A DNA stretch of 64,000 nt from Lama guanicoe (taxonomy: Eukaryota). The position numbers and the translations under genes are program-made. The notes under the pieces were generated by a model. The model was not told the origin of the DNA and ran no database searches. It saw only the letters and a list, made by a program, of their open reading frames with translations. The stretch covers positions 248,001 through 312,000 of the forward strand of contig MU053810.1 of the NCBI GenBank assembly GCA_013239625.1, in the 5' to 3' direction. Below, in pieces: positions 8,521 to 62,715 of this stretch (within the stretch, counting starts at the first letter, position 1; each line of letters opens with the position of its first letter).

Positions 8521-9769
8521 CTATACATTTACACTGATAAAATACTACATTTCTTATCTGTTTGTGTACAGGGGCTTTATATGTATAAGAATTTATTTTT
8601 AAAAGGGTTCTGCTACTAAAAAAAGGAAAAGAAGTAAAATATAGGGAAAAGGAAACCAGTGCAATAAATAATTTAAAAGTGAATTTAAAAGTTTCTTCCC
8701 TACTCTAGAGGAGACTAGCATTATGCATGTATTTCAGATACAAAGGGAAGATGTGTCCTCAGAAAGTTATTCCCTACGATGCTAATGTTCTTCTTCTTCC
8801 TGAATCTTTAGCCTCTTTAGAATTTTTTCTTTTAAGTTATGTTAAAATCAGAAAGAAGCCAACAATGTTACAACATGTTGAGACAGGGAAGGGAATGAGG
8901 AGAAGCATGCACACACGTATACACATACACATATGCATGTATACACATGCACACACATGCACGTACACACACCTACATACAATTTGGGGACCCCCTCCTT
9001 AGGCCCAGTCTAAAGTCACATAGCGCTGGGTGCACTGTGTTGGAGCTGCCATTTCCCCAGAGGCGCGGGGGGGTGGTGGCAGCCAGCACCGTGGCACACA
9101 CTCTGCGGGGAGAGAGCCTGGCAGAATGATTTATCTCAGGGAGAGGATGCCAAGAACATTTGAGGGGTAAAGGAACAGAAAGAAAAAGGGCCTGGGTGGA
9201 GGAAGGTGCAAAGCGGAGCCTCTTGCAAAGCACACCGCTAACTGTGTCAGGATGATTTCCAGTCTGGGGCAGCCGAAGCCCCGGTGTGGACGTGCGCTGC
9301 TGGATTCAGGAGCCTTGCGGCGAGCAAACGCTAACGTGGGAATGAAGCCTGGCAGTTCTAGGATCTTGCAATAAGGAGTCAGATGAGCCATCTGGTAGTT
9401 TTTCCTCTTCCATCTTTTTTTTCTCTCTCTTTTTTCTTAGGGGTGGGGGTGAGAGATGGGGCTGGTGGTGGACCAAGCATCTGAAGGTCTCATGTGGTTT
9501 GACGGCAAATAAGCACATAGAAGCTCGGTTTACAAAGACAGCCCAGCAGATGTCACGATGAACGCCGCCCAAGAACGCCCCCGGGGCACCGCGGACTAAA
9601 GCGGGTGGGGGAGCAGGGGAAGGGACGGAAAGCACTACCTCTTAACTGTCCCCGACGCTCCTCTTCCAAGTTCACTGCCTACAAGAACCCTCAGAGGAGC
9701 ATCAGGGCACATTATTTTCAGGAGGCTGGTGTAAAACTCACAGACATAGACTTCATCAAACATCGAGAG

Positions 9770-12815: not shown

Positions 12816-12940
12816 GGGGACGGGTGTATCTCAAGTGGTAGAGCGCATGTTTAACACACATGAGGTCCTGGGTTCAATCCCCTGCACCTCCTCTAAGAAT
12901 AAAGCAAATAAACCTAATTATCTTCCTTCCCCCAAAAGAG
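12816..12940 (+). mobile_element. tRNA-derived SINE (camelid Vic-1 type)
   Basis: ggggacgggtgtatctcaagtggtagagcgcatg...gaggtcctgggttcaatcccc (A and B boxes); tail aaataaacctaattat...ccccaaaa; degenerate TSD ggaaatatgtttt/ggaatgtatttt. Confidence 0.85.
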
Positions 12941-15021: not shown

Positions 15022-15083
15022 GACATACACCTGAAACTAACATTGTAAATCAACTACACTTCAACAAAAAATAAGAAAAAAAG
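15022..15083 (+). mobile_element. Very short L1 3' end with degenerate TSD
   Basis: tacacctgaaactaacattgtaaatcaactacacttc plus A-rich tail; flanks agaaaattcccc/agaacatcccc. Confidence 0.7.
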
Positions 15084-15812: not shown

Positions 15813-16011
15813 TTGGTTTTTTAATTACAAAAAAATTTTTTAACTTCTTTTATTTTGAGGGGAGTTTTTTTGTTTTGGTTTGGTTTTTTGTTTGTTTGTC
15901 TTGGGGGGGGTTATTAGGTTTATTTATTTATTATAATGGAGGTACTGGGGATTGAACCCATGACCTCATGCATGCCAGGCATGCACTCTACCACTGAGCT
16001 GTACCCTCCCC
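15813..16011 (-). mobile_element. tRNA-derived SINE (Vic-1 type)
   Basis: Reverse complement ggggagggtacagctcagtggtagagtgcatgcc...gggttcaatccccagtacctcc with a long A-rich tail. Confidence 0.85.
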
Positions 16012-17999
16012 TTCATGGTATGTTTTAGCATCTATCCAGGACCAATTCAGTCCTTACAGTCATAGATTTACATGTTTCAATGATGTAAATATTTACTTAT
16101 TTTTTTTAAGTCAAAATGGTTTCTCAAAACTATTTTAAGCCAAAGAATATCCACAATGATGGATACATTATTCTTTAAAATCAGTTTGGAAGAATTTACC
16201 TAGAATATGCAGTGCAGAGACTCGATCTTTCTCACGTCACCACGTGGTGAAAAAACCATCATACTGGTAGAGCCCTGCAGTAAAGACGGACATTAGGTGA
16301 CTAATATCCTTTTTACCAATTACAAGCAGATGCAAATAGCCTGATTCCATCTCACAAAAAGCAAAATTTTTGTCTGTTTATCTATTTCTCTTATTCACGG
16401 TTTCCACAGAAAAAACAAAGTACCACTTGCTCTCTGAAATTTGGTAGCTGATACGTCCAGCAGGCTTACGAATAATAAAATCACCCCGTAAGGCACAATG
16501 CCACGCATACAACCTGCATTTACTGAGAATCTAATATGTGGAAAGCTCTGTGCTAGCTTCTTGAGGCACCTCATGTGAGGCGGACAGAAGAATTCCTACT
16601 TGTACAGTGAAAGGATCTGGGAACAGAGAGGCACCCTAACCTGCCAAGTATCCTGGAGCTAGGTTTGCCCGATTCTAAAATCCTTTTCCTTTCCACCACC
16701 CCTGCTGGCAAAACCTGCAACTTGGCCATGGCCTTGCCTAGCTGCATGGGGTGATGGCAAGCTGACAGCAAACAAAACCGCAAGTCGGGAGAAACACGCT
16801 CTCGTGCAAAGCAAGTGAAAAGAGCTTTCTAGGAGTTGAATTTGTTGGGTCTAGGAACACAGATTCTTCAGGGAGAGGAGGAGTTGTTCTGCGGAATAAT
16901 AATAAGGACATCTGTCAGTTTCTATCATCCAAAAGGGGAGTTTCACAGGACATGCTATTACAGGTTTTCTTCCCTCTTGTTAAGTCCCAGAGACTGCGGA
17001 ACTAGTGCTATCAGAAACCATCAATTATTTCAGCAGATCGACGAAGAGAGTTTTCATGTAAAATTCCAGGTGTGTAGAAGTCTCCAACCCGAACAGTGGG
17101 AACATGGATAGACTCTCCAAATAAGGAATACATAGCCACAAATCGCGGATTGTTAAATAATCATTCTTTCCAGAGAGCAGTGTAATGAGAAATACCTCGG
17201 GGCTGAAATGATCCAGTAATGTGGATGCAAGAGCATGCAAAGCGATGTAACTAAACAAATAATAAACAGATGGGCACTGGAAAACAAAATGTTAATTCTA
17301 AAGTAAGTAAACATTAGATCTCCTTTATAACAAGTTTTCACGTGAGTGTGTCCTGGAGAAAAATGGCAGATGAAGATTCCGAGGTTTCCTGGGAGTGGGT
17401 GGATGAGCTGGATAATTAACCCTCAGAGCCCTTCCTGGTTCCAGTCTTACCTCTTGAAAAGCATTTTCTCCATATCCATAAGGCAAAAAAGGGAGAGAGG
17501 GCTCTCTCTCTGATGCTGAAAGTCCTCTAGATCACTGTCACCTGAATTAATTACCTCCTACAATTTAGCAGACAGATACTGAACATTTCGTACATCGGGG
17601 GAAGGAGCTTCATATTAGAGCCAAAGAGAGAGCCAGAGGATGAGGTCCCAGTGCTTGTGAAGAGGATGGTTCAGAGAGGGTGAAGAAAGACAGAGGACAG
17701 GCAAGATCATTTATGACTGCAACAAACAGTAGGAGGGAGGAGAGGAGGGGGGACAGTGATGGAGAAGACAGTGCCTGCAGAAGGCATCCCTGAGGATGCT
17801 TTTTCTACTACAGCAGAGGGAAGGTAGAGAACCTCGTCTTCCTCCCTCCCCCACTTCTTCCGCATTTATAGATTTGATGGTACAAAATGAGAGGTGGGTA
17901 TGGAGGGCTGCGCTGCCAGTGTGGGGTGGAGACATTTACTGAGCTCTGACAATATTGCTTTGAATGAACCCTGCAGGTGGTCTGAGGAGTGTCCAGTGA

Positions 18000-18460: not shown

Positions 18461-18544
18461 CTGAAACACTGGCTAGGATCCTGGTCTTCAACAATCTCCA
18501 CTTTTGCGATGAACTTCCAGTTAATCAATGAAGGAGGTGCTTTT

Positions 18545-18572
18545 GTGTGTGTGTGTGTGTGTGTGCGCGCGC
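18545..18572. repeat. (TG)n/(CG)n microsatellite
   Basis: gtgtgtgtgtgtgtgtgtgtgcgcgcgc read directly. Confidence 0.9.
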
Positions 18573-19812
18573 ACGTGCCAAAGGGGAGTAGGGAGAGGGA
18601 AAGACTGAGATGCAGGAGAGATGGAGAGAGAGACACAGGAGGAAGGAGGGTGGCTCCTGCAAACACAGCAGCACCCACTTCCCCACCCTGAGGTCCTTCT
18701 CACCACGAGCATCTCTGGATCCCCACCCACCACTCCCCACCATTCTTCTGCCTTTGGTCACTGGAGGCACAGGCTGGGAGGAGGGGTGGGACTGGGAAGG
18801 TGGGGAGGGGATATTATGAGGCTGCGGGCGGGGGTGTTGGGTGGCCTTCCTCTGCTCTCTAAGATTAGAAGCCTGCTTGTGCCTCTGTGATGTTTTCCTT
18901 CTTATCTGCATGTCAAACGAGAAGGAGCGAGTTTCTCCCCGTCTTGCACCACATGTTTCGTGTTTTCATCTGAGTGATACCCTTGGATACAGCACCGCAG
19001 CCTCACAGGAGGAAAGGAGCCGAGGACACCTCACCACTCGTTCCTAACCGTGTTCTCTAACAGACTGTTTCTTCCAAGAATAAAAGAGACGGCTAACGTT
19101 TGCACCATTTTACACAGCTGACTTGGTTCCACCCCCAACGAGGGACTTGTATGTCAGCAGGTCCAGTGGCAGCAACATGAGGACCTTCTCTGGACTTCCT
19201 ACAGTATTAACATCTCCACCATCTCCCTCTACACCCAGGCCAGCCAGGGATGAGACTAAGAAGGAAGCTTAGGTCATACGTCCATGTGTTTTCATAAAAG
19301 AAAGACACAAATGCCATCACCCATGGGCAGGAAGGTAATGTAACCATGAGATTCACTTCCTATTAGAGTTAAAAACCAACGCGTGATATTTTAGAGGGGA
19401 GAATATTCTAAATGGAGGTACATAGAGTCACTGAATTTTAGGGATCTGAGTCTCCAAATCCTCTCCAAAAAGGAAGTGTGGTTTTGATTTCCAGCTGTTT
19501 TTTGTTTTTTTTTTTTTCCCGGATGCCTATTGTGCTGGTGCTCATGTGTGCTGATTAGGAAGATCTGAGCACCAAAGAAGCATGCCCAGTATTCTGGGAA
19601 AATGTGACCAGCGCTCTGCTCTGTGCTGAAACAGTGACTGACAGAAGGCAAGATGCCAGAATCAAAATTTTGAACTGAAAAATCACTGTGGAACAGCAGA
19701 GAACACCTTGGCTTTGGAGGAAGCTGGGTTCAAAATGCCATTCCAACATCTACTGAGTATATAACGTTAAACAAAGTACTTGATCTGTTTTCTTATCAGT
19801 AAAAACACAGAA

Positions 19813-32424: not shown

Positions 32425-34470
32425 AGACATACAGACGGCCAACAGGCACATGGAAAGAGGCTCAGTATCACTAATTATCAGAGAAATGCCAATCAAAATT
32501 ACAATAAGGTGTATCACCTCACACTGCTCAGAATGGCCATCATTCAAAAGTCCACAAACAATAAATACTAGAGAAGGTGTGGAGAAAAGGGAATCCTCCT
32601 ACATTGCTGATGAGAATGTAATTTGGTGCAGCCACTATGGAGAACAGTATGGAGATTCCTTAAAAACTAAAAATAGACTTTAACATATGATCCAGCAATG
32701 CCACTGCTGGGCATGTATCTGGAGAATGCTCCAATTCAAAAAGATACATGCACCCAATGTTCATAGCAGTGCTATTTACAATAGTCAAGAAATGGAAGCA
32801 ACTTAAATGTCCATCGACAGATGACTGGATAAAGAGAATTATTTCATCCCTCTTGAATCTCCCCTCATCCTAGAGCCCGAGACTCTCTGCTGACTTTTCT
32901 TTTGTTTCTGAGCACATTTTCCCAGGTTCTCCAAGATTGCCTTCCCCCACTGGGCCCTGAAATGTTGGTGTTCCCACAGTTCTCTCCCTGGTCATTGCAG
33001 TGTGCCCTGTAAGATCACTGCTTCCTCCAGGAAGACTTCCCTAACTGTGCCCATTTCTAGAATACCTCCATCCTCTCCTCCACCACAGATGAATGTCTGT
33101 CTACTTGTGTGACCCCTCTGCTATAGGGTAAGGACCTGGAAGACTAGGACTTGGAACTGCAACAATGACATTAATGACAATAATGACAGACAGCTGTTAC
33201 TGGCACTCGCGCTCCACCAGGCACCATCCCCAGTGCTTTGCAAAGATCGTTCCATTTGCTCTTTACACCAACCCTATGATTTCTCCCATGAGACAATGGA
33301 AATTTATAGAGTTGAAATAACTTGCTGATGATTACACAGACTGATGCGAACCTTGAAGGGCAGGCGTTGAAGCCAATGACCTTAACCATGGCCCCACAGG
33401 AGCTCTTCCCATTGACCCAGCCCAAGAATTTGATTCAACATATATATGAAGGTAAAAGAGAGGAACAGAGAGGCAGGGGATCTTGTAAAAGTAAATGTCC
33501 TGTAATTTCAACACAACTTCTTGTTCATAACACTGTTGAATAAATGAAACAGTTCCCAATTCCAATGTACTTAGTTCTTTACAACTGCCGTTTTTTCACG
33601 CTGATGGGGCTGGATTTTTGCAGAGTAAAACGCAACCTATGGTTCCTTCTCACCATCAGCCTAATGAAAGTATCAATGCAGCATAGAAGAAGGAAAAAAT
33701 GCTACTTAAAAATGCAACAATCTTAAATCTCTCCATGCAAACAGCAAAACATTGTACACCATGTAAATCTGCTATGAATTCCATTGGTCCATGGGTATCT
33801 ATACAGTTTCTCAAGTGGGTCTGTTTTGTTATTGAATCTCAGGTTCCCCCCTCCACCAAAAAAAATTAAAAGTGTCTTCTGGGTTTGAACTCGTTAGCTT
33901 TAAATGTAAAAGCATCCTTGTGACATGCATATGTGTGCGCGTGCACAAAGCAACTTAAATGTCCATCGACAGATGACTGGATAAAGAGGTTGTGGTAAAA
34001 ATACACAATGGAATACTATTCGGCCATAAAAAAGATGAAATAATGCCATTTGTAGCCACATGGATGGTCCTAGAGAATATTAAACTAAGTGAAGTAAACA
34101 GAGAAAGACAAATATCACATGAAATTTAAAAAATGACACAAATAAACTTATTTATTTCTTATAAACATAAAGAGACCCAAAGACATAGAAAACAGACTTA
34201 CAGTTACCAAAGGGGAAGGTGGAGGGGGAAGGATAAATAGGGACTTTGAGATTAGCAGACAAACTACTATATACAGACTAGCTAAACAAGGTCCTACAGT
34301 AGAGCACAGGGAACTATATTTGATAACCTGTAATAACCTATAATGGAAAAGAACATGAAAAAGAATATACATGTTTGACTGAATCACTATGCTGTACACC
34401 AGAAGCTAACACAACATTGTAAATCAGCTATACTTCAAGTAAAAAGAAGATAAATAAATAAAAAAAACAA
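32425..34470 (+). mobile_element. L1 (ORF2 C-terminal region and 3'UTR) split by a 1.1-kb non-L1 insertion at 32837-33947
   Basis: ORF 32450-32683 (SLIIREMPIKITIR..GVEKRES) resembles the L1 ORF2 C-terminus; L1 resumes at 33948 and ends with poly(A) at ~34440-34470. Confidence 0.85.
32837..33946 (+). repeat. 1,110-bp direct duplication, derived copy
   Basis: Matches 36150-37259 at constant offset 3313; only two substitutions noticed (33246 A/36559 G; 33632 G/36945 A); the ORF track repeats the same peptides. Confidence 0.95.
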
Positions 34471-36149
34471 AAACAATGAATTAGAATGAAATATAGCAGC
34501 ATGGCCAGGTGTTTGAAACATTGTGAACTACAAATGGTAAAAAAAAAAAAAGGACTCTATAGACAAATACCATTCACATAAATTAAAAACAAAACCTCAC
34601 ACACCCACACACGTGCTACAAAATGACAAATTCTAGGAGGCGCCCATAATATTGAAAGAGATACATCAAATCTGTTAGGGTCCAATAGTCTGCCCTAGAC
34701 CTTGTTGGAGAGGCAGGAGTCGAAAAGTTTGAATTGTCATTTCAAAATAAATATAGATCAACTGCTCTCATCTAATGATTGATGTTACACAACAAAATCA
34801 ATGGTTTGAAAAACACACATTCCAGTCCGTTCCATTTCCAAAAGGCACAATCAGGATTTCAAGGATTTTGCCAGTGGGAAACATTTCAGCATCACTAGTA
34901 TTTTTGTCTCTTGTGTCTTTTGGGAACGTTCAACATTTTGATCACTGGTGAATCAGAGACACCCAGACGGGAGAAATAAAATGCCACAGCAGATAGCTAA
35001 GCAGCGCAGGAAGGCTGAAGCAAGGGTGTGCTAGCCCCTTGGGGCTCCTGACATGTGGTCTCCAGGGTCAGAACCCAGATGCAGGTGGGACAGAAAATCA
35101 CTTCTTTCCTTGAGGCTAATAAACAGCTTTTGCAAGAGCAGGAAACACAGATGGCTGTGCCGGGGGAGTTCCTCATCTTCGGTCATCTCAGCACCCGTGT
35201 CCGCCTGCCATGATGCTTCTCCCACTCCAGCAGATGCTAATTAATATATTCAGGAGGGAAAAAAGGATAATATTTCACATAAATGATGCCAACGTAAACA
35301 CTGGGGATTTCTGGACAGGTGGGACTGGGAGTGTGTTTCCTCTTTTTTGCTTACGCTTTTCCTACTTTGCCTTCTATGAGCACAGACTGCTTTGGCCATT
35401 ATGAAAAAATAAAACATTTCCAAAAAATAATAGCACCAGGCTTAGTCAGAAGGCTTTAAAAATCATGCTTTCTTTGGTGCACTAATAACTTCACTGCAAA
35501 GTAGAAATGTATTTTCAACTAATACGTTTATTCCAAAGCCATCTGGCTACACGTTGTCCTTGAGGAAAACTACCAGTCACCTCGCTTCCGAGAGGCTCGC
35601 GGTGCAATGCCTAGGTGACTAGTGCATGGCGTGAACTCCTGTGACCAAACAGGGAAGATATGGAGAAAACAATAATCCCAAAGCTACATTTCCAGCCACC
35701 CCCACCCCTAAACACCCATTCCCTTTACTTAATTAGAGGATTAAATGAGCTAAAGTGAGTACAGGGTTTAGACACTTCCAGTGCCCTGTATTAAAACATC
35801 AGGTCAATTGGACTGCATATTTTCATTTAAGTAAGAAAAGTCTACTTGAGAAACCAGGTTAAGATCAAAAGGTTGCTTTCTGAGCCCAAGGTCATCCATC
35901 TAAATGGTCAAGTAGAGAAAGACCTTAGGGTGGTGGCTTTCCATCAGCCATGTTGGGAGTATTCACACCAGAGAAATGGGTAGAAGCTACAGGAGAGCCA
36001 GCTGTTAAACACTGGCTCACGTACCACTGGGCTGCTTCCCCACCGGTGCTGAAATGGACCTTATGGAAGCCAAATGGCGTTGTTGTCCCTAAATCCAATG
36101 GACACTGTCTAGTTGTATTTTTCTTGAACTCTCCAATGTGTTGACAGTC

Positions 36150-37259
36150 AATTATTTCATCCCTCTTGAATCTCCCCTCATCCTAGAGCCCGAGACTCTC
36201 TGCTGACTTTTCTTTTGTTTCTGAGCACATTTTCCCAGGTTCTCCAAGATTGCCTTCCCCCACTGGGCCCTGAAATGTTGGTGTTCCCACAGTTCTCTCC
36301 CTGGTCATTGCAGTGTGCCCTGTAAGATCACTGCTTCCTCCAGGAAGACTTCCCTAACTGTGCCCATTTCTAGAATACCTCCATCCTCTCCTCCACCACA
36401 GATGAATGTCTGTCTACTTGTGTGACCCCTCTGCTATAGGGTAAGGACCTGGAAGACTAGGACTTGGAACTGCAACAATGACATTAATGACAATAATGAC
36501 AGACAGCTGTTACTGGCACTCGCGCTCCACCAGGCACCATCCCCAGTGCTTTGCAAAGGTCGTTCCATTTGCTCTTTACACCAACCCTATGATTTCTCCC
36601 ATGAGACAATGGAAATTTATAGAGTTGAAATAACTTGCTGATGATTACACAGACTGATGCGAACCTTGAAGGGCAGGCGTTGAAGCCAATGACCTTAACC
36701 ATGGCCCCACAGGAGCTCTTCCCATTGACCCAGCCCAAGAATTTGATTCAACATATATATGAAGGTAAAAGAGAGGAACAGAGAGGCAGGGGATCTTGTA
36801 AAAGTAAATGTCCTGTAATTTCAACACAACTTCTTGTTCATAACACTGTTGAATAAATGAAACAGTTCCCAATTCCAATGTACTTAGTTCTTTACAACTG
36901 CCGTTTTTTCACGCTGATGGGGCTGGATTTTTGCAGAGTAAAACACAACCTATGGTTCCTTCTCACCATCAGCCTAATGAAAGTATCAATGCAGCATAGA
37001 AGAAGGAAAAAATGCTACTTAAAAATGCAACAATCTTAAATCTCTCCATGCAAACAGCAAAACATTGTACACCATGTAAATCTGCTATGAATTCCATTGG
37101 TCCATGGGTATCTATACAGTTTCTCAAGTGGGTCTGTTTTGTTATTGAATCTCAGGTTCCCCCCTCCACCAAAAAAAATTAAAAGTGTCTTCTGGGTTTG
37201 AACTCGTTAGCTTTAAATGTAAAAGCATCCTTGTGACATGCATATGTGTGCGCGTGCAC
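36150..37259 (+). repeat. 1,110-bp direct duplication, probable donor copy (L2, MIR and unique sequence)
   Basis: L2-like sequence from ~36080 runs continuously across its left edge; its right edge lies within the 5' end of the next L1. Confidence 0.9.
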
Positions 37260-37755
37260 GCACGCGCACGTGCGCGCACACACGCACTGGAATATTACTC
37301 AGCCACAAAAAAGAATGAAATAATGCCATGTGCAGCAACATGGATGGACCTAGAAATTATCATATTGAGTGAAGTAAGTCAGAGAAAGACAAATATCATA
37401 TGATAGCCACTTGTATGTGGAATCTGAAAAAAAAAGATACACGTTCTACTTATAAACCAAAAACAGACTCTCAGACATAGAAAACAAACTATGGTTACCA
37501 AAGAGGAAAAGGTGGAAAGGGATAAATTAGGGGTTGGGGGTTAACAGACACACATGACTATATACAAAATAGATAAACCATAAGAACCTACTGTGTAGCA
37601 CAGGGAATTATATTCAATATCATATAATAACCTATAATGGAAAAGAATCTGAAAAGAAAATATATATATATGTATATGTATAACTGAATCGTTTTACTGT
37701 ACACCTGAAACTAACATTGTAAATCAACTGCACTTCAAAAAAAATTTTTTTTAAA
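37236..37755 (+). mobile_element. 5'-truncated L1 3' end
   Basis: tggaatattactcagccacaaaaaagaatgaaataatgcc...aacattgtaaatcaactgcacttc; TSD GTAAAAGCAT(CC/TT)TTGTG at 37219-37235 and 37756-37772. Confidence 0.85.
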
Positions 37756-38172
37756 GTAAAAGCATTTTTGTGTTTGGGTACGGAAGTGCCACCGGATCAA
37801 TTTGCAAAGCTGGGACTTACTGCAGATCCTCGCAGTAAGGAAAGGGTGCTAGATGCTTGCTTGAAGGGTCGTGCCATGTGTCTGTGACTAAGGCGGCGCG
37901 TGCCCAGGGATGCTAAGAGAACTCAAGTAGTCCAGGGAGCTGTTCCTGGGAAATTAACACACCACTAAATGGCCCAGGAGGCTTTCCAAACCCCTCTCAT
38001 TACAAACCCCACAACACCTCTCAAGAGCAATTTTCCCTTTACAGGGATGCTGCGGGAAAGTTATTAGAATGTGTACAGGCAGCCCCAGAGTCTCCTCACT
38101 AGTGGAGGGAAAGGGACATGCAGGGGATAGGTTTTCCTGGAAAACCTTTAAGCTTTAAAGCCCAGGAAGAAA

Positions 38173-38358
38173 AGGGGGGTGGGGAGGAAGGGAAGGAGGG
38201 AAGAAAGAGGGACAGATAGAGACAGGGAGGGAAGAAAGGAAGGGAGGGAGGGAGGGAGGAAGGAAGAGAAGAAGGAAGGGAGGAAAGGAAGGAAAGAAAA
38301 GAAGGAAGGAAGGACGGAAGGAAGGAGGGAAGGAGGGAAGGAGGGAAGGAAGGAAGGA
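38173..38358. repeat. GA-rich (GGAA/GGGA)n low-complexity tract
   Basis: Direct reading; explains ORFs 38099-38416 and 38179-38466. Confidence 0.9.
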
Positions 38359-40477
38359 ATCCCACTTCTGGGTATGTACCCCAGAACCTCTGTGCAGGCT
38401 CAGCCAAGCCTGTCAAGGGAAGCGGGCAGGGTCAGGCAGGGAAAAGAGAAGCCGGTTTATTTGTAAATTAGCCGGCATCCTGGTCTCTCTGAGATCCAGA
38501 CTCTCTGCCCCTGGAGGCTGTTCTATCCGTGAGGGATCCAAGGAGCAGAGAGAAAGCAATGCATGGGTCAGAGCGCCTGGTGTTCGAGGTCGAGTGGTCC
38601 CTCCCCTGAAGGACCTTGGTTTAGTCACAACCTCTCTGCTCAGCTTGGAAATGAGGATAGAGTACCTGCTTTCACTCAAAGTAAAGAGCTATTCTGGTGA
38701 CTTTCCACTCCAAGTTGCTTGGCTGAGAAACAAACAGACAAAGAGCATCTCAGTTTGCCCTTTTCTACGAACTCGTTCTGCCTCTGGCAGTCAGGACTCC
38801 GGCTGCCCTGCAGTCCCAGCCCCTGCACCGGCCCAGAGCCTCGCAGACTGAGCCCGGCTGCTGGCACCAGCCCCTCTGGTCCTGGGCCCAAGGGAGAGGC
38901 TGGGCTGTTTACTTTTGGTTTCCCAGTAACTCCTGTTTCCAAGAGTTCCCTGCCAAAGGGAGAATGAGGGAGGTGGCCACAAACGGCCACATCCAAGGGC
39001 AGTCCAGGGTGGAGGTAGACCCAGGGGCCACCCAGGCCACGTGCTCTGTGCCTCTGCCCCAGGAGAGACCCCCACCCTCACGCTCTGCCTTCATCAGTTC
39101 ACTCCTGAGAACCCCTCATCTGAATTATTCCTTGGGAAGTTCTTGGGCCACAGAACAGGGGATAGAGAAGAGACACTGGGGGTCAGAGTGGGCCCCTGAA
39201 TGGCCTAGACTCACCAGGCACTGGGAAGGGAATTGCAGCCGGGGGCAAAATGATGCTGACCTGGGGGCAGGGTGAGAAGATACTGAAGCAAACACTGCCT
39301 GCTGCCCAGGGCCGGTTCTGAACAAGGTGTGTGTGTCTGATTGTCTCCGTCTAACACACACACACGTGCACACACACACAGCTTCTTCCCACTTTCTCAC
39401 CCTGCATTAGAAGCCATGTGGTTCACAGGAAGGGGCCCCAACTAGGAGCCAGGAGACCTGGGTTCTGTCCTAGCTCCATTGCGTCCTACCCTCATGGCCT
39501 TCACCTGTCCAGGCCTAAGTTATTCCTCTGTAAAATAAGAAGCGGCACTGGAGCAGTATCCCATAGCGGGGCCCTACGTACACTGCGTCCAGGGAAAAGG
39601 ATGCTGTGATCAACTAAGTTTGCCAGCGCCTCACACTACGGCACCGGCACCCCACGCCCCACCTCTGTCTCATTCCAGGACACTCACACTGCAACTGGCA
39701 ATCACACCCCTCACTTCCCTGCACCCCTGGGCACATAGTAGATGAAGATACATTCTGACAATTAATTGGAATCTGAATCCCTAGACATGCTCAAAATATC
39801 ACTCACCAGTTACAGGTGGCAAACCATGACTATTCTCAGGAACGAGTCAACTGGAGATAATTAAGACGGACCCTCAAACTCCTGACGCCCTCTGAATGGC
39901 ATCCAACAAGCGCTTCTGGAAAGTTCTCCCGGGAAGCTAAGTGCACTGATGACAGAAATGGGTGGGGCAGAAATTCAGTTTCCCGTGTGCCAACCGCCAA
40001 GCACTTAGCTAATTAGTCAAATACTGACTGCATGTTACGGATTTTATCCAATTACTTATTAATGTCCGTCAAAGATGCTGGTTGGTATCTGTACTACTTC
40101 CAGCCCAATCTCCACCAGCCTTGGGGTTTTTACCTGAATTGTTTGCTTAGCATCTATCTCATCACATCTGTGTTGTAACATTTGTTTGCCCTTGGAAATG
40201 ATTCTGTAGCAGACACTGGCTTGGCTGGGTGGGGAGAATTCAAAGATACCTGAGAAAGGGTCCCAGGCCTCAGGAGGTGCTCCTTCCACCTGCGAAGGCA
40301 GATGGGCGACAAGTACTTAATGACAGATCAGGGTCAGCGCAGGGGCCCACTAGCAGGTATGCGACGCACACCAGGTGAGCGGAAATGACTTAACAAGGTC
40401 AGGGATCCTGTTGGGGGAAGAAAGCCCTTCTAATGCTGGAGAGTCGTGTTTGCACCCTGTATCTTTGAGGACGAGCC

Positions 40478-56321: not shown

Positions 56322-56558
56322 CCACCATGATCATCACCACCACCACCACCATCACCACCATCAACTTCATCATCACCACTACCAACATCAGCATCACCAC
56401 CACCACCCTCACCATCATCAGCAGCACCACACCATCATCACCATCCTTATCATCATCACCACCACCACCATCATCACCACCATCATCATCATCACCACCA
56501 TCTTCATCACCACTACCATCCTCATCATCACCAGCACAATCATCACTATCATCCTCAT
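56322..56558. repeat. (CAC/CAT)n imperfect trinucleotide tract following a MIR (~56110-56300)
   Basis: Direct reading; source of the poly-His/Thr/Asp ORFs. Confidence 0.9.
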
Positions 56559-57493
56559 CTCCAAGTCCTTTCATATGTATGCTTACTTCTTGAACAACAG
56601 CCTCTATGGCTTTGGGTGAAGGAAATCCATTTTTTTCTTCCCGGAGATGCTACATATTACTTATCCTTCATAATTACTTAAAATGTATTGCCACTTTTCC
56701 AAATAAGAGCCATATACCTAGTAGGAGCCTCTTCCCCTTGTTACCTTTTTATTTACTTACATAAATCATAGGGTTCAGTATTGTTTTAAGAATCTACACT
56801 ACCAAGGTAGTAACCCGAACCTGAGCTATCCGAGTCCAGCTTTCCACTCTCCAAGCATGCAAAGACAAGAAGGAAAACAGGTGCTCCCGGGAGTGCAGAA
56901 ATTGTTTCCACAGAAATCACGTGGACACTGCCTGCGTGCTGACAGCTACTTTGCCATCATAATGTTCTGATTACTGTAAATCTGCTTAGTACAATCACAC
57001 TCATGCAGTCCTCAAAAAAATAAAAACTCGAAGTGGAAATGCTATCTGAATGCGAAAGACCTGGAACATAGTATAGTAGGAGTATGGAGTCTAGTAGGAA
57101 TCCAAAGAGACTCAAATTGAATCAGTCATTGACAACATCAGATAAAAATCTAAGGATTTTATTGAGAAACACCATCATCTTTGCTGTTGATCTTCAAACA
57201 CATCTGGAAATGGGATAAGCTGTTTTAACAAAGGCAAGTACCAAACTGTATGTTTGCCAGAACAATTTCTTGTATGATGCCAAGGGAAAAACAACTCAGA
57301 TAATTAGAGCCATCAAATTAAAGAGCCACTGAGATATCAGCTCATCTGTTCCCCCTCCAGGTAGAGCTGTCACTGTCCCAGTATAGGCAATATTTTCTAA
57401 GATCTCCAAATAACATACTGTATTCCAGTATTAGATAATCTTCCCCTAGCAAGACATTGTTTTTCATCCAACTTAAATTTCCTTTATGACTTC

Positions 57494-57993: not shown

Positions 57994-58674
57994 CCTCTGT
58001 GTCCTCACGTCCCACGTCCTGATCTTTCTCAGCCATTGAGTAGGGAGCTGTGGTTGTTAATTTCTCTGGGACTCATTATCTTCACTATAAAAATAAAAGA
58101 GATGGATTGCTAGGGCTAGTAATGTTAGGATTCTAAATATTCAAGGACTTAGAAACAGCACAGTGCCCTCACAGAGTGCTGGCCACTCAAATACAATAAT
58201 ATACGTTAACGGATGCCAATTGTCACATTTCTCCAGGTAAAATAATACCAGTTCCTTCTGGCTCTCCTCCCAGAACCTAATTTCCAGGCTCTGGCCATTT
58301 CTGCGGCTCTTGGTGGCATCTTCCCGAGCACCCCCACCTCCTTCTCGGGCTGGTACCCGGATAATGTGACACATATTCCATGACACCTGTTTTCCTCTCT
58401 TCCTAGTGGGGCTTATATGACAGTCGTTTTGCTGGGATTTTCATTCTAGTACCAAGTGAAACTGAGCTGACTAACAAGCCCTGTTTGAACAGTAAGGCTT
58501 TTGCCTGACAGTACTTTTCCCACTGTCATCTGAATCCAAGTTCCCAGAAAACTTAACTGCAGCTACTTTCAACATGTGCAGAGTCACTAGCTTTTCCACC
58601 AAATACTGCAACCCAGGGTGGGCCTCAGCAGGCGCCAGTCTTTTACTGATGTGATATACATATTCCTACATATT

Positions 58675-59715
58675 TTTGTTTTATGTTTTTTATGTTTATT
58701 TTTTACTAAAGTGTAATTGATTTATAGTGTTAGTTTCAGGTGTACAGTGAGCAATTCAGTTATACATATACATACAGATACATTTTTTTCTTTTCAGATT
58801 CTTTTCCATTATATGTTATTATAAGAAATTAAATATAATTCTCTGTGCCCTGCAGTAGGTCCTTGTGGTTTATCTATTTTATATGTGGTAGTGTGTATCT
58901 GTTAATCCCAAACTCCTAATTTATCCCTCTGCTACCCATCCATGTTGCTGTAAATGGCATTATTTCATTCTTTTTTATGGCTGAGTAATAGTCCATTGTG
59001 TATATATACCACATCTTCTTTATCTAGCCATCTGTCGATGGACATATAGGTTGTTCCATGTCTTGGCTATTGTAAATAGTGCTGCTGTGAACATTGGGGT
59101 GCAGGTGTCCTTTTGAAGTAGGGTTCCTTCTGGATATATGCCCAGGGCCGGGATTCCTGGGTCACATGGTAAGTCTATTCCTAGTCTTTTGAGGAATCTC
59201 CATACTGTTTTCCAAAGTGGCTGCACCAAACTACATTCCCACCAGCAGTGTAGGAGGGTTCCCTTTTCTCCACATCCTTTCCAGCATTTATTATTTGTAG
59301 ACTTTTTAATGATATTCATTCTGACTGGTGTGAGGTGTTATCTCATAGTTTTCATTTGCATTTCTCTGATAATTAGCGATATTGAGCATCTTTTCTTATG
59401 CCTGTTGGCCATCTGGATGTCTTCTTTGGAGAAATGTCTATATAGGTCTTCTGCCTATTTTTTTGACTGGGTTGTTTGGGTTTTTGTTTTTTTTTATATT
59501 AAGCTATATGAGCTGTTTGTATATTTTGGAGATGAGTCCTTTGTCAGTCGTGTCATCTTCAAATATTTTCTCCCATTCTGTAGGTTGCCTTGTGGTTTTG
59601 TTCATGGTTTCCTTTGCTGTGTAAAAACTTTTAAGCTTAATTGGGTCCCATTTGTTTATTTTTGCTTTTATTTCCATTACTTTAGGAGCTGGTTCAAAAA
59701 GAACACTGCTGCAGT
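58675..59715 (-). mobile_element. L1 3' ~1 kb including the ORF2 Cys-rich C-terminus, frameshifted and with an internal deletion near 58935
   Basis: ORFs 59504-59797 ([25 protein letters not shown]) and 59020-59319 ([36 protein letters not shown]). Confidence 0.9.
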
Positions 59716-59866
59716 TGAAATATATATAAATATGTATTTTTAATGTATATTTTAGTCTAACTGCATTGGTACAACTAGATTTCCAATTCAGAAACATCTG
59801 TTAGTTAAATTACCTACAGATCACGTTGATGAGCAAATTGTAGCCTTAAGAATTATCTAGAGACAG

Positions 59867-60014
59867 TGTATAGCACAGGGAAACATGCTCAATAACCCGT
59901 AATAACCTATAATGAAAAAGAATATACATATGCATGTAGAACTGAATCACTATGCTGTACACCAGAAACTAACACAACATTGTAAGTCAACTATACGCCA
60001 ATTAAAAAAAAAAA
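59867..60014 (+). mobile_element. Short L1 3' end
   Basis: gtatagcacagggaa...gaatcactatgctgtacaccagaaactaacacaacattgta with poly(A); 16-bp TSD AATTATCTAGAGACAG (59851-59866 and 60017-60032). Confidence 0.85.
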
Positions 60015-62633: not shown

Positions 62634-62715
62634 GAGGGGGTGTGGTTGTAGCTCAGCATGCGGGAGGTCCTGGGTTCAATCCCCAGTACCTCCATTAAAA
62701 AATATTTTTTTAAAG
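62634..62715 (+). mobile_element. Vic-1-type SINE with internal deletion
   Basis: gtagctcagcatgcgggaggtcctgggttcaatccccagtacctccattaaaa; flanks aagaaagacaa/aagaaaaggacaa. Confidence 0.8.

Follow-up and report, generated by a model that had tools for sequence, protein, structure and literature searches.

Duplications of nearby DNA that interrupt old transposons have been described in mammals as proximal repair-mediated duplications (RDs; Pace, Sen, Batzer and Feschotte 2009, PMC2671141), the donor of each insert lying within 5 kb. The portions of that survey drawn on here place 824 of 1,136 human duplicons within this distance, count 202 proximal cases in cow and 192 in dog, and report the class in mouse and rat as well. 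The human cases reach 619 bp and carry flanking duplications of 4–21 nt; among 39 inspected proximal cases, none had a tail and six had a flanking duplication. The homologous chromosome was suggested as a possibly preferred template. The collection was filtered in two ways: relative to the consensus, the halves of the interrupted transposon had to join up to within 30 bp, and annotated segmental duplications (>1 kb) were removed. An insertion resembling this class interrupts a LINE-1 (L1; long interspersed nuclear element 1) in Lama guanicoe (assembly GCA_013239625.1, contig MU053810.1, positions 248,001–312,000 of the forward strand). All coordinates below refer to this 64,000-nucleotide stretch, hereafter the window. 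The insertion is probably a real and young germline repair-mediated duplication, whose formation would have involved two template switches within a single event.

The insert (X; 32837–33946, plus strand) is 1110 bp long and matches a segment of the same length at 36150–37259 (plus strand), from which it differs at 2 of 1110 positions when the window is compared with itself by BLAST. The differences are A at 33246 against G at 36559, and G at 33632 against A at 36945, the upstream base of the second pair being part of a CpG. The upstream copy is flanked by two 41-bp sequences (T; 32796–32836 and 33948–33988, plus strand) that are 100% identical, and one additional A (33947, plus strand) stands between it and the second of them. 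An initial annotation of this DNA had given the limits of both copies, the two substitutions, the perfect flanks and the extra A, and the comparison reproduces each of them exactly. Both copies have the same orientation. The donor starts 2203 bp beyond the end of the acceptor, and a single-copy interval of 2161 bp (R; 33989–36149) separates it from the second 41-mer. The dot-plot-type self-comparison that the initial annotation had called for yields a single donor for the insert and one long near-identical pair in the 64 kb, namely these copies; the remaining long matches are L1 pieces with 70–91% identity. Chance cannot have produced the 1110-bp match together with its flanking 41-mers. The window contains no N, and there is no gap at either joint.

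The recipient (L1a, plus strand) is, as judged from its coding remnants, a dead and 5′-truncated LINE-1. Its left part (32425–32836), which aligns with other L1 sequence, matches residues 1196–1221 of the second open reading frame (ORF2) protein, ORF2p (E 3e-05). Its right part (33948 to approximately 34475), likewise supported by alignment, comprises the ORF2 end, the 3′ untranslated region and an A-rich tail, and matches residues 1210–1236 (E 1.3e-07); residues 1210–1221 are thus present twice. When 32837–33988 is removed, the resulting empty site aligns unbroken across the 41-mer to another L1 of the window, at about 58660–59422, with 610 of 738 columns matching. The upstream copy is the insert, since its removal restores a continuous LINE-1 ORF2 end. 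No target-site duplication was found for L1a, the best candidate having 9 matches where random pairs reach 12. Protein families gave no further support to these elements, as Pfam returned none for five of five frames from the L1 and L2-like pieces; the L1 identity rests on the ORF2p matches.

The direction of copying is given by a second LINE-1 (L1b; 37236–37755, plus strand), which is also 5′-truncated and is recognized by alignment and by its match to ORF2p. It starts at about residue 1229 and matches residues 1229–1262 (E 4.4e-05). Its target-site duplications, at 37219–37235 on the 5′ side and 37756–37772 on the 3′ side (both plus strand), are alike at 15 of 17 bases, a value reached by none of 300 random region pairs. 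The insert holds an orphan copy of the 5′ target-site duplication (33906–33922, plus strand, by sequence match) and the first 24 bases of L1b, without the L1b body. Because only this 5′ half and these 24 bases were carried in, the downstream copy is the donor in its ancestral position, and L1b is therefore older than the duplication event. The initial annotation had also taken the downstream copy as ancestral, on the ground that an L2 element continues across its left edge. The ancestral status stands on the L1 evidence, whereas the L2 label found no confirmation: Pfam returned no family for any of the three frames of the remnant, and no second L2-like or MIR-like (mammalian-wide interspersed repeat) copy by which the substitutions could be polarised was present below E 0.5 in the window besides the two copies themselves. 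The remnant (36085–36310, plus strand, limits approximate) is presumably L2-like by its resemblance, yet unconfirmed, and the label is not needed for the direction of copying. Similarly, we take 36480–36650, with its copy near 33170–33340, to be a MIR-like remnant; it contains one of the substitutions, and no second copy of it was found in the window. The donor as a whole consists of old repeat remnants and unique non-coding DNA without an Rfam family.

Other L1 sequences occur in the window. A dead, longer L1 at about 58660–59800 (minus strand) lacks about 150 bp of ORF2 end and 3′ untranslated region present in the other two L1s, and a short L1 3′ end (59868–60011, plus strand) adjoins it in the opposite orientation. 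A very short 3′-end fragment at 15026–15082 is identical to the L1b end at 43 of 45 bases.

As written, the microhomology at both joints is zero. The next base of the donor (37260) is G, as is the base before T (32795), and 37259–37260 form a CpG. The extra A may be a deaminated form of this shared templated G, giving a joint with 1-bp homology; a single untemplated base is the simpler reading, given so few other changes. Homology of at least 2 bp is absent from the joints, which show a 1-nt filler, or 1 bp of homology should the A derive from a G. The target sites read AAATGG/AAGCAA and AAAGAG/GTTGTG, and neither strand reads 5′-TTTT/A-3′; the L1 endonuclease consensus is thus missing on both strands at either end of the insert. 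Both ends were also inspected for a poly(A/T) tract of at least 5 bp, and neither carries one, in agreement with the earlier remark that the insert has no poly(A). Two short sequences common to the recipient and donor flanks, AGTCAA (6 bp) and TTAAATGT (8 bp), were rejected as guides; they are out of register and at chance level by rough expectation.

The locus shares with the RDs, as defined in the accessible text of PMC2671141, the interruption of an old transposon by 50 bp or more of inserted DNA, an intact donor more than 50 bp away but within 5 kb (here 2203 bp), and the lack of a poly(A/T) tail of at least 5 bp. At least one mark of repair (microhomology, filler or deletion) belongs to the same description and is represented here by the filler base or the 1-bp homology. 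A short-range flanking duplication and the near-identity of young copies are further likenesses. The insert differs in its length (1110 bp against at most 619 bp), in its flanking duplication (41 bp against 4–21 nt) and in having no microhomology of at least 2 bp; in addition, camelids lie outside the 10 species of the survey. Yet the size ranges are partly set by method, because the 30-bp and segmental-duplication filters would exclude the present case, and a size range or filter is a property of a survey, not of a mechanism. Taken on these comparisons, membership in the RD class is likely, provided that the duplication is real and has a unique donor. The type of mutation is a known one with this case at its large end, a likeness that had escaped the initial annotation, as had the possible derivation of the extra A from a deaminated G and the break at a palindrome loop described below. 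A limited literature search found no camelid report of repair-mediated duplication or templated insertion.

Two other described systems are close. The PCAWG (pan-cancer whole-genome) study, in the account available to us (PMC7025897), describes the cycle of templated insertion and the local n-jump, with 1,467 cycles. In those events, too, the path goes back to the host chromosome after a copied piece has been put in, and part of that chromosome is re-replicated; they are somatic and from human cancer, whereas here the event would be germline, with one local insert and 41 bp re-replicated. In the vocabulary of that study, the present locus would be a cycle with a single local template. Templated sequence insertion polymorphisms (TSIPs), as outlined in PMC5110952, likewise combine a templated insert with an intact donor, and their class 2 is tail-less with untemplated bases. 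Their templates are distant, however, and class 1 comes with a tail, a signal and an endonuclease site, all absent here. Class 1 also comes with a target-site duplication, which is present here at 41 bp, longer than the 4–21 nt of PMC2671141; class 2, by contrast, is described without a flanking duplication.

In the proposed mechanism, the segments T (41 bp), R (2161 bp) and X (1110 bp) would have had the ancestral order L-T-R-X-M, and the present order L-T-X-a-T-R-X-M, in which "a" is the extra A, would have resulted from a jump over 2161 bp in the forward direction and a return over 3312 bp. Synthesis would depart from the chromosome at one end of T, skip R at the first template switch, and copy X, 2.2 kb distant, using the same chromatid, its sister or the homologous chromosome. 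It would then rejoin at the other end of T, so that T is copied twice, and both joints would form with 0–1 bp of homology. For human deletion breakpoints, Abyzov et al. (2015) reportedly found template distances of tens of bases and of a few kb. The initial annotation had favored DNA-templated repair or a template switch over retrotransposition, and the missing tail, the missing endonuclease site and the nearby donor support that choice; from these features we infer a DNA template, and from the geometry a single event. An SDSA-like process (synthesis-dependent strand annealing; a staggered break, strand invasion and end joining) and a FoSTeS/MMBIR-like one (fork stalling and template switching, or microhomology-mediated break-induced replication; a stalled fork with template switching) are not separable from the sequence.

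The right end of the copied tract may have been set by a hairpin- or Z-DNA-prone microsatellite. The right break of the donor (37259/37260) falls at the edge of the 2-nt spacer between the 10-bp arms of a perfect palindrome (37248–37269). It also lies in an alternating purine-pyrimidine microsatellite of 52 bp, which forms the 5′ end of L1b (37236–37287, plus strand). Palindromes and alternating purine-pyrimidine tracts favor DNA breaks. Palindrome-loop boundaries make up 12 of 62,848 positions, giving a chance of 0.0008 for any of the four breakpoints, and the corresponding chance for the alternating tract is 0.016, both values being post hoc. Alternating purine-pyrimidine tracts without sign of rearrangement are also found at 8905–8972, 18544–18578 and 39354–39380. 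About 175 bp of purine-only (GGAA/GGGA)n sequence (38183–38359), a possible triplex-prone site, lies 900 bp to the right of the donor end.

The presence of the insert in other data was assessed by sampling 124 words from 32760–34030 and matching them against the contigs of public sequencing runs. Such contigs show presence and not absence, and words at joints or variants can drop out even in carriers. Of 24 runs, 20 from 8 studies contain the stretch, with word shares of 0.77–0.85; two contain next to none of it, and two lie outside the index. Twelve of the 20 (five organism labels, six studies) lie at 0.84–0.85, without a step up. Insert-specific words make up 123 of the 1230 distinct words, which sets the ceiling for a non-carrier at about 0.90. 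With about two additional differences a non-carrier would fit a share of 0.85, whereas about six would be needed for a carrier keeping all words. These values are compatible with empty alleles in all 20 runs without demonstrating them, and they point weakly to the likeliest outcome being that none of the 20 carries the insert; a rare allele would account for them as well as an assembly error would.

The two differences also bear on age. At 3 Myr, 10–15 differences would be expected between the copies, and the probability of three or fewer is at most 0.01; fixation of the insert across species is therefore unlikely. The two differences give 0.04–3.25 Myr under three assumed rates, a range rejected as a firm date, since a homologous template may have contributed them as alleles. 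With a homologous-chromosome template, the differences could be older alleles and the event itself very recent. The earlier suggestion that the event is recent and perhaps polymorphic agrees with these results: the insertion is probably young and may be polymorphic. By the same reasoning, segregation of the two differences as alleles at the donor, which the initial annotation had named as grounds for rejecting the duplication, could be compatible with a real duplication if the template was the homologue.

Several points weigh against a genuine duplication formed by repair. Both joints are known from the assembly alone, and no run among the 20 stands out as a carrier, the highest share of sampled words being 0.85. 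The location of the break cuts both ways, since a microsatellite at an L1 also suits a contig end. Short-read contigs tend to end at microsatellites and L1s. Under SDSA the invading end should show microhomology, which is lacking at the left joint. Furthermore, the insert and its flanking duplication exceed the upper limits of 619 bp and 21 nt given in PMC2671141, and a filler together with a duplication but without microhomology is seen in none of the 39 proximal cases in the material of that survey used here.

These points matter most for an assembly artefact, the foremost alternative and one with a modest but appreciable chance. The second haplotype of X would have been set between contigs with a 41-base overlap, and heterozygous sites would account for the two differences, or three if the A is counted. 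The divergence of 0.18% is a value that mammalian heterozygosity can take, an assembler might plausibly use words of 41 bases, and X has one of its ends in a microsatellite. The best word share of 0.85, with 12 of 20 runs at 0.84–0.85, stays below the non-carrier ceiling of 0.90, as the artefact predicts, yet a rare real allele predicts the same result. The usual behavior of assemblers also argues against it: a de Bruijn assembler gives short bubbles at single-nucleotide polymorphisms 386 bp apart rather than a second 1110-bp copy, and haplotype duplicates from long reads are usually many kb in length, not placed inside an L1 with a flanking duplication. Heterotype false duplications, in the part of PMC9516828 considered here, can share one scaffold, and the near-identical pair lying close together with few substitutions is similar to them. 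According to the same source, however, a gap most often separates such duplications, and the window has none between or beside the copies, although a gap closed later would leave no trace. The L1 is moreover interrupted with a clean 41-bp duplication, unlike in the false duplications.

Within the repair-mediated duplication itself, the part played by L1 homology has to be weighed. The initial annotation had observed that the TGGAATA of the second L1 is homologous to the recipient about 20 bp past the 41-mer, and indeed 37288 in L1b corresponds to 34009 in the recipient. Its further proposal, that L1-L1 homology guided the event, found no support. L1b matches the right part of the recipient at 79.6% of columns (344 of 432), the register at the joint is off by at least 33 bp (61 against 28 bp before the shared TGGAATA), and 0–1 bp is shared there. 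Their longest common run is 23 bp, which has a probability of 0.36 by chance, and there is therefore no conversion tract. Homologous recombination would have placed a joint in register within shared L1 sequence, and the joint here is not so placed. On the sequence, homology did not specify the joint. A looser role is a doubtful variant, whose weight forms part of that given to the repair-mediated duplication: the end with T and 3′ L1a might pair loosely with L1b and prime leftward synthesis of X at the microsatellite. The copied tract ends 24 bp inside L1b, within 5 kb the only same-strand homologue of the recipient right flank, and that orientation is preserved in the copy; these features suit such pairing. 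The low identity, the displaced joint and the chance-level run speak against it, and the palindrome at the same place accounts for the end point without homology. A broader conjecture, more doubtful still, is that this locus represents an undercounted subset of RDs with kb-sized inserts and flanking duplications above 30 bp, in which the donor would be chosen by loose same-strand L1 pairing and copying would start at a nicked hairpin or Z-DNA microsatellite. If that were true, pairs of dead L1s would steer local copy-and-paste repair without an in-register junction.

A route in two events has a very small probability. A tandem duplication of the 3312-bp T-R-X unit, perhaps from a fork broken at the palindrome, would come first, after which a deletion would remove R from the first of the two units. 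This yields the identical final sequence, accounts directly for the break at the palindrome loop, and explains the 41-bp repeat without a special mechanism. Yet the deletion must begin within 41 bp of the unit start, which has a random chance of 1.2% (3% for ±50 bp). A return within 41 bp of the departure point thus has about a 1–3% chance under two independent events, and one event with two switches is preferred for this reason. Least probable of all is reverse transcription of a local RNA into the site by the LINE-1 machinery, whether target-primed or as an endonuclease-independent RNA patch: the flanking duplication, an ATTAAA at 37178 (81 bp before the 3′ end) and the tail-less RNA-derived patches included in PMC5110952 would suit it, but poly(A) and the endonuclease consensus at either end are missing, the class 1 signal as given there is AATAAA 10–30 nt before the tail whereas the only AATAAA is at 36852, and a donor 2.2 kb away would be expected of a DNA template rather than a diffusing RNA.

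The repair-mediated duplication, if real, would cleanly illustrate a mutational route already described, with two readable joints, and might serve as a presence/absence marker. It would also expose a blind spot of the 2009 survey, which could not count flanking duplications above 30 bp or lengths above 1 kb. If false, it is a small assembly error. A search of 32600–38200 against Rfam gave no matches, and no gene or RNA family was found at the event. The insertion has the look of a common scar left by the repair of a DNA break, if rather a large one; it is expected to be neutral, with no evident function and no phenotype. The surrounding window is repeat-rich and has no CpG island, the observed/expected CpG ratio being at most 0.51 in every kb.

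Elsewhere in the window, a tRNA-derived short interspersed nuclear element (SINE) is present in three copies, at 12817–12922, 15905–16015 and 62646–62705, which we take to resemble the camelid SINE. ARAGORN labels two of them as tRNA-Val and tRNA-Ala, which are probably false calls. A degenerate (CAT/CAC)n repeat of about 240 bp (56322–56559) contains open frames rich in His, Asp and Thr.

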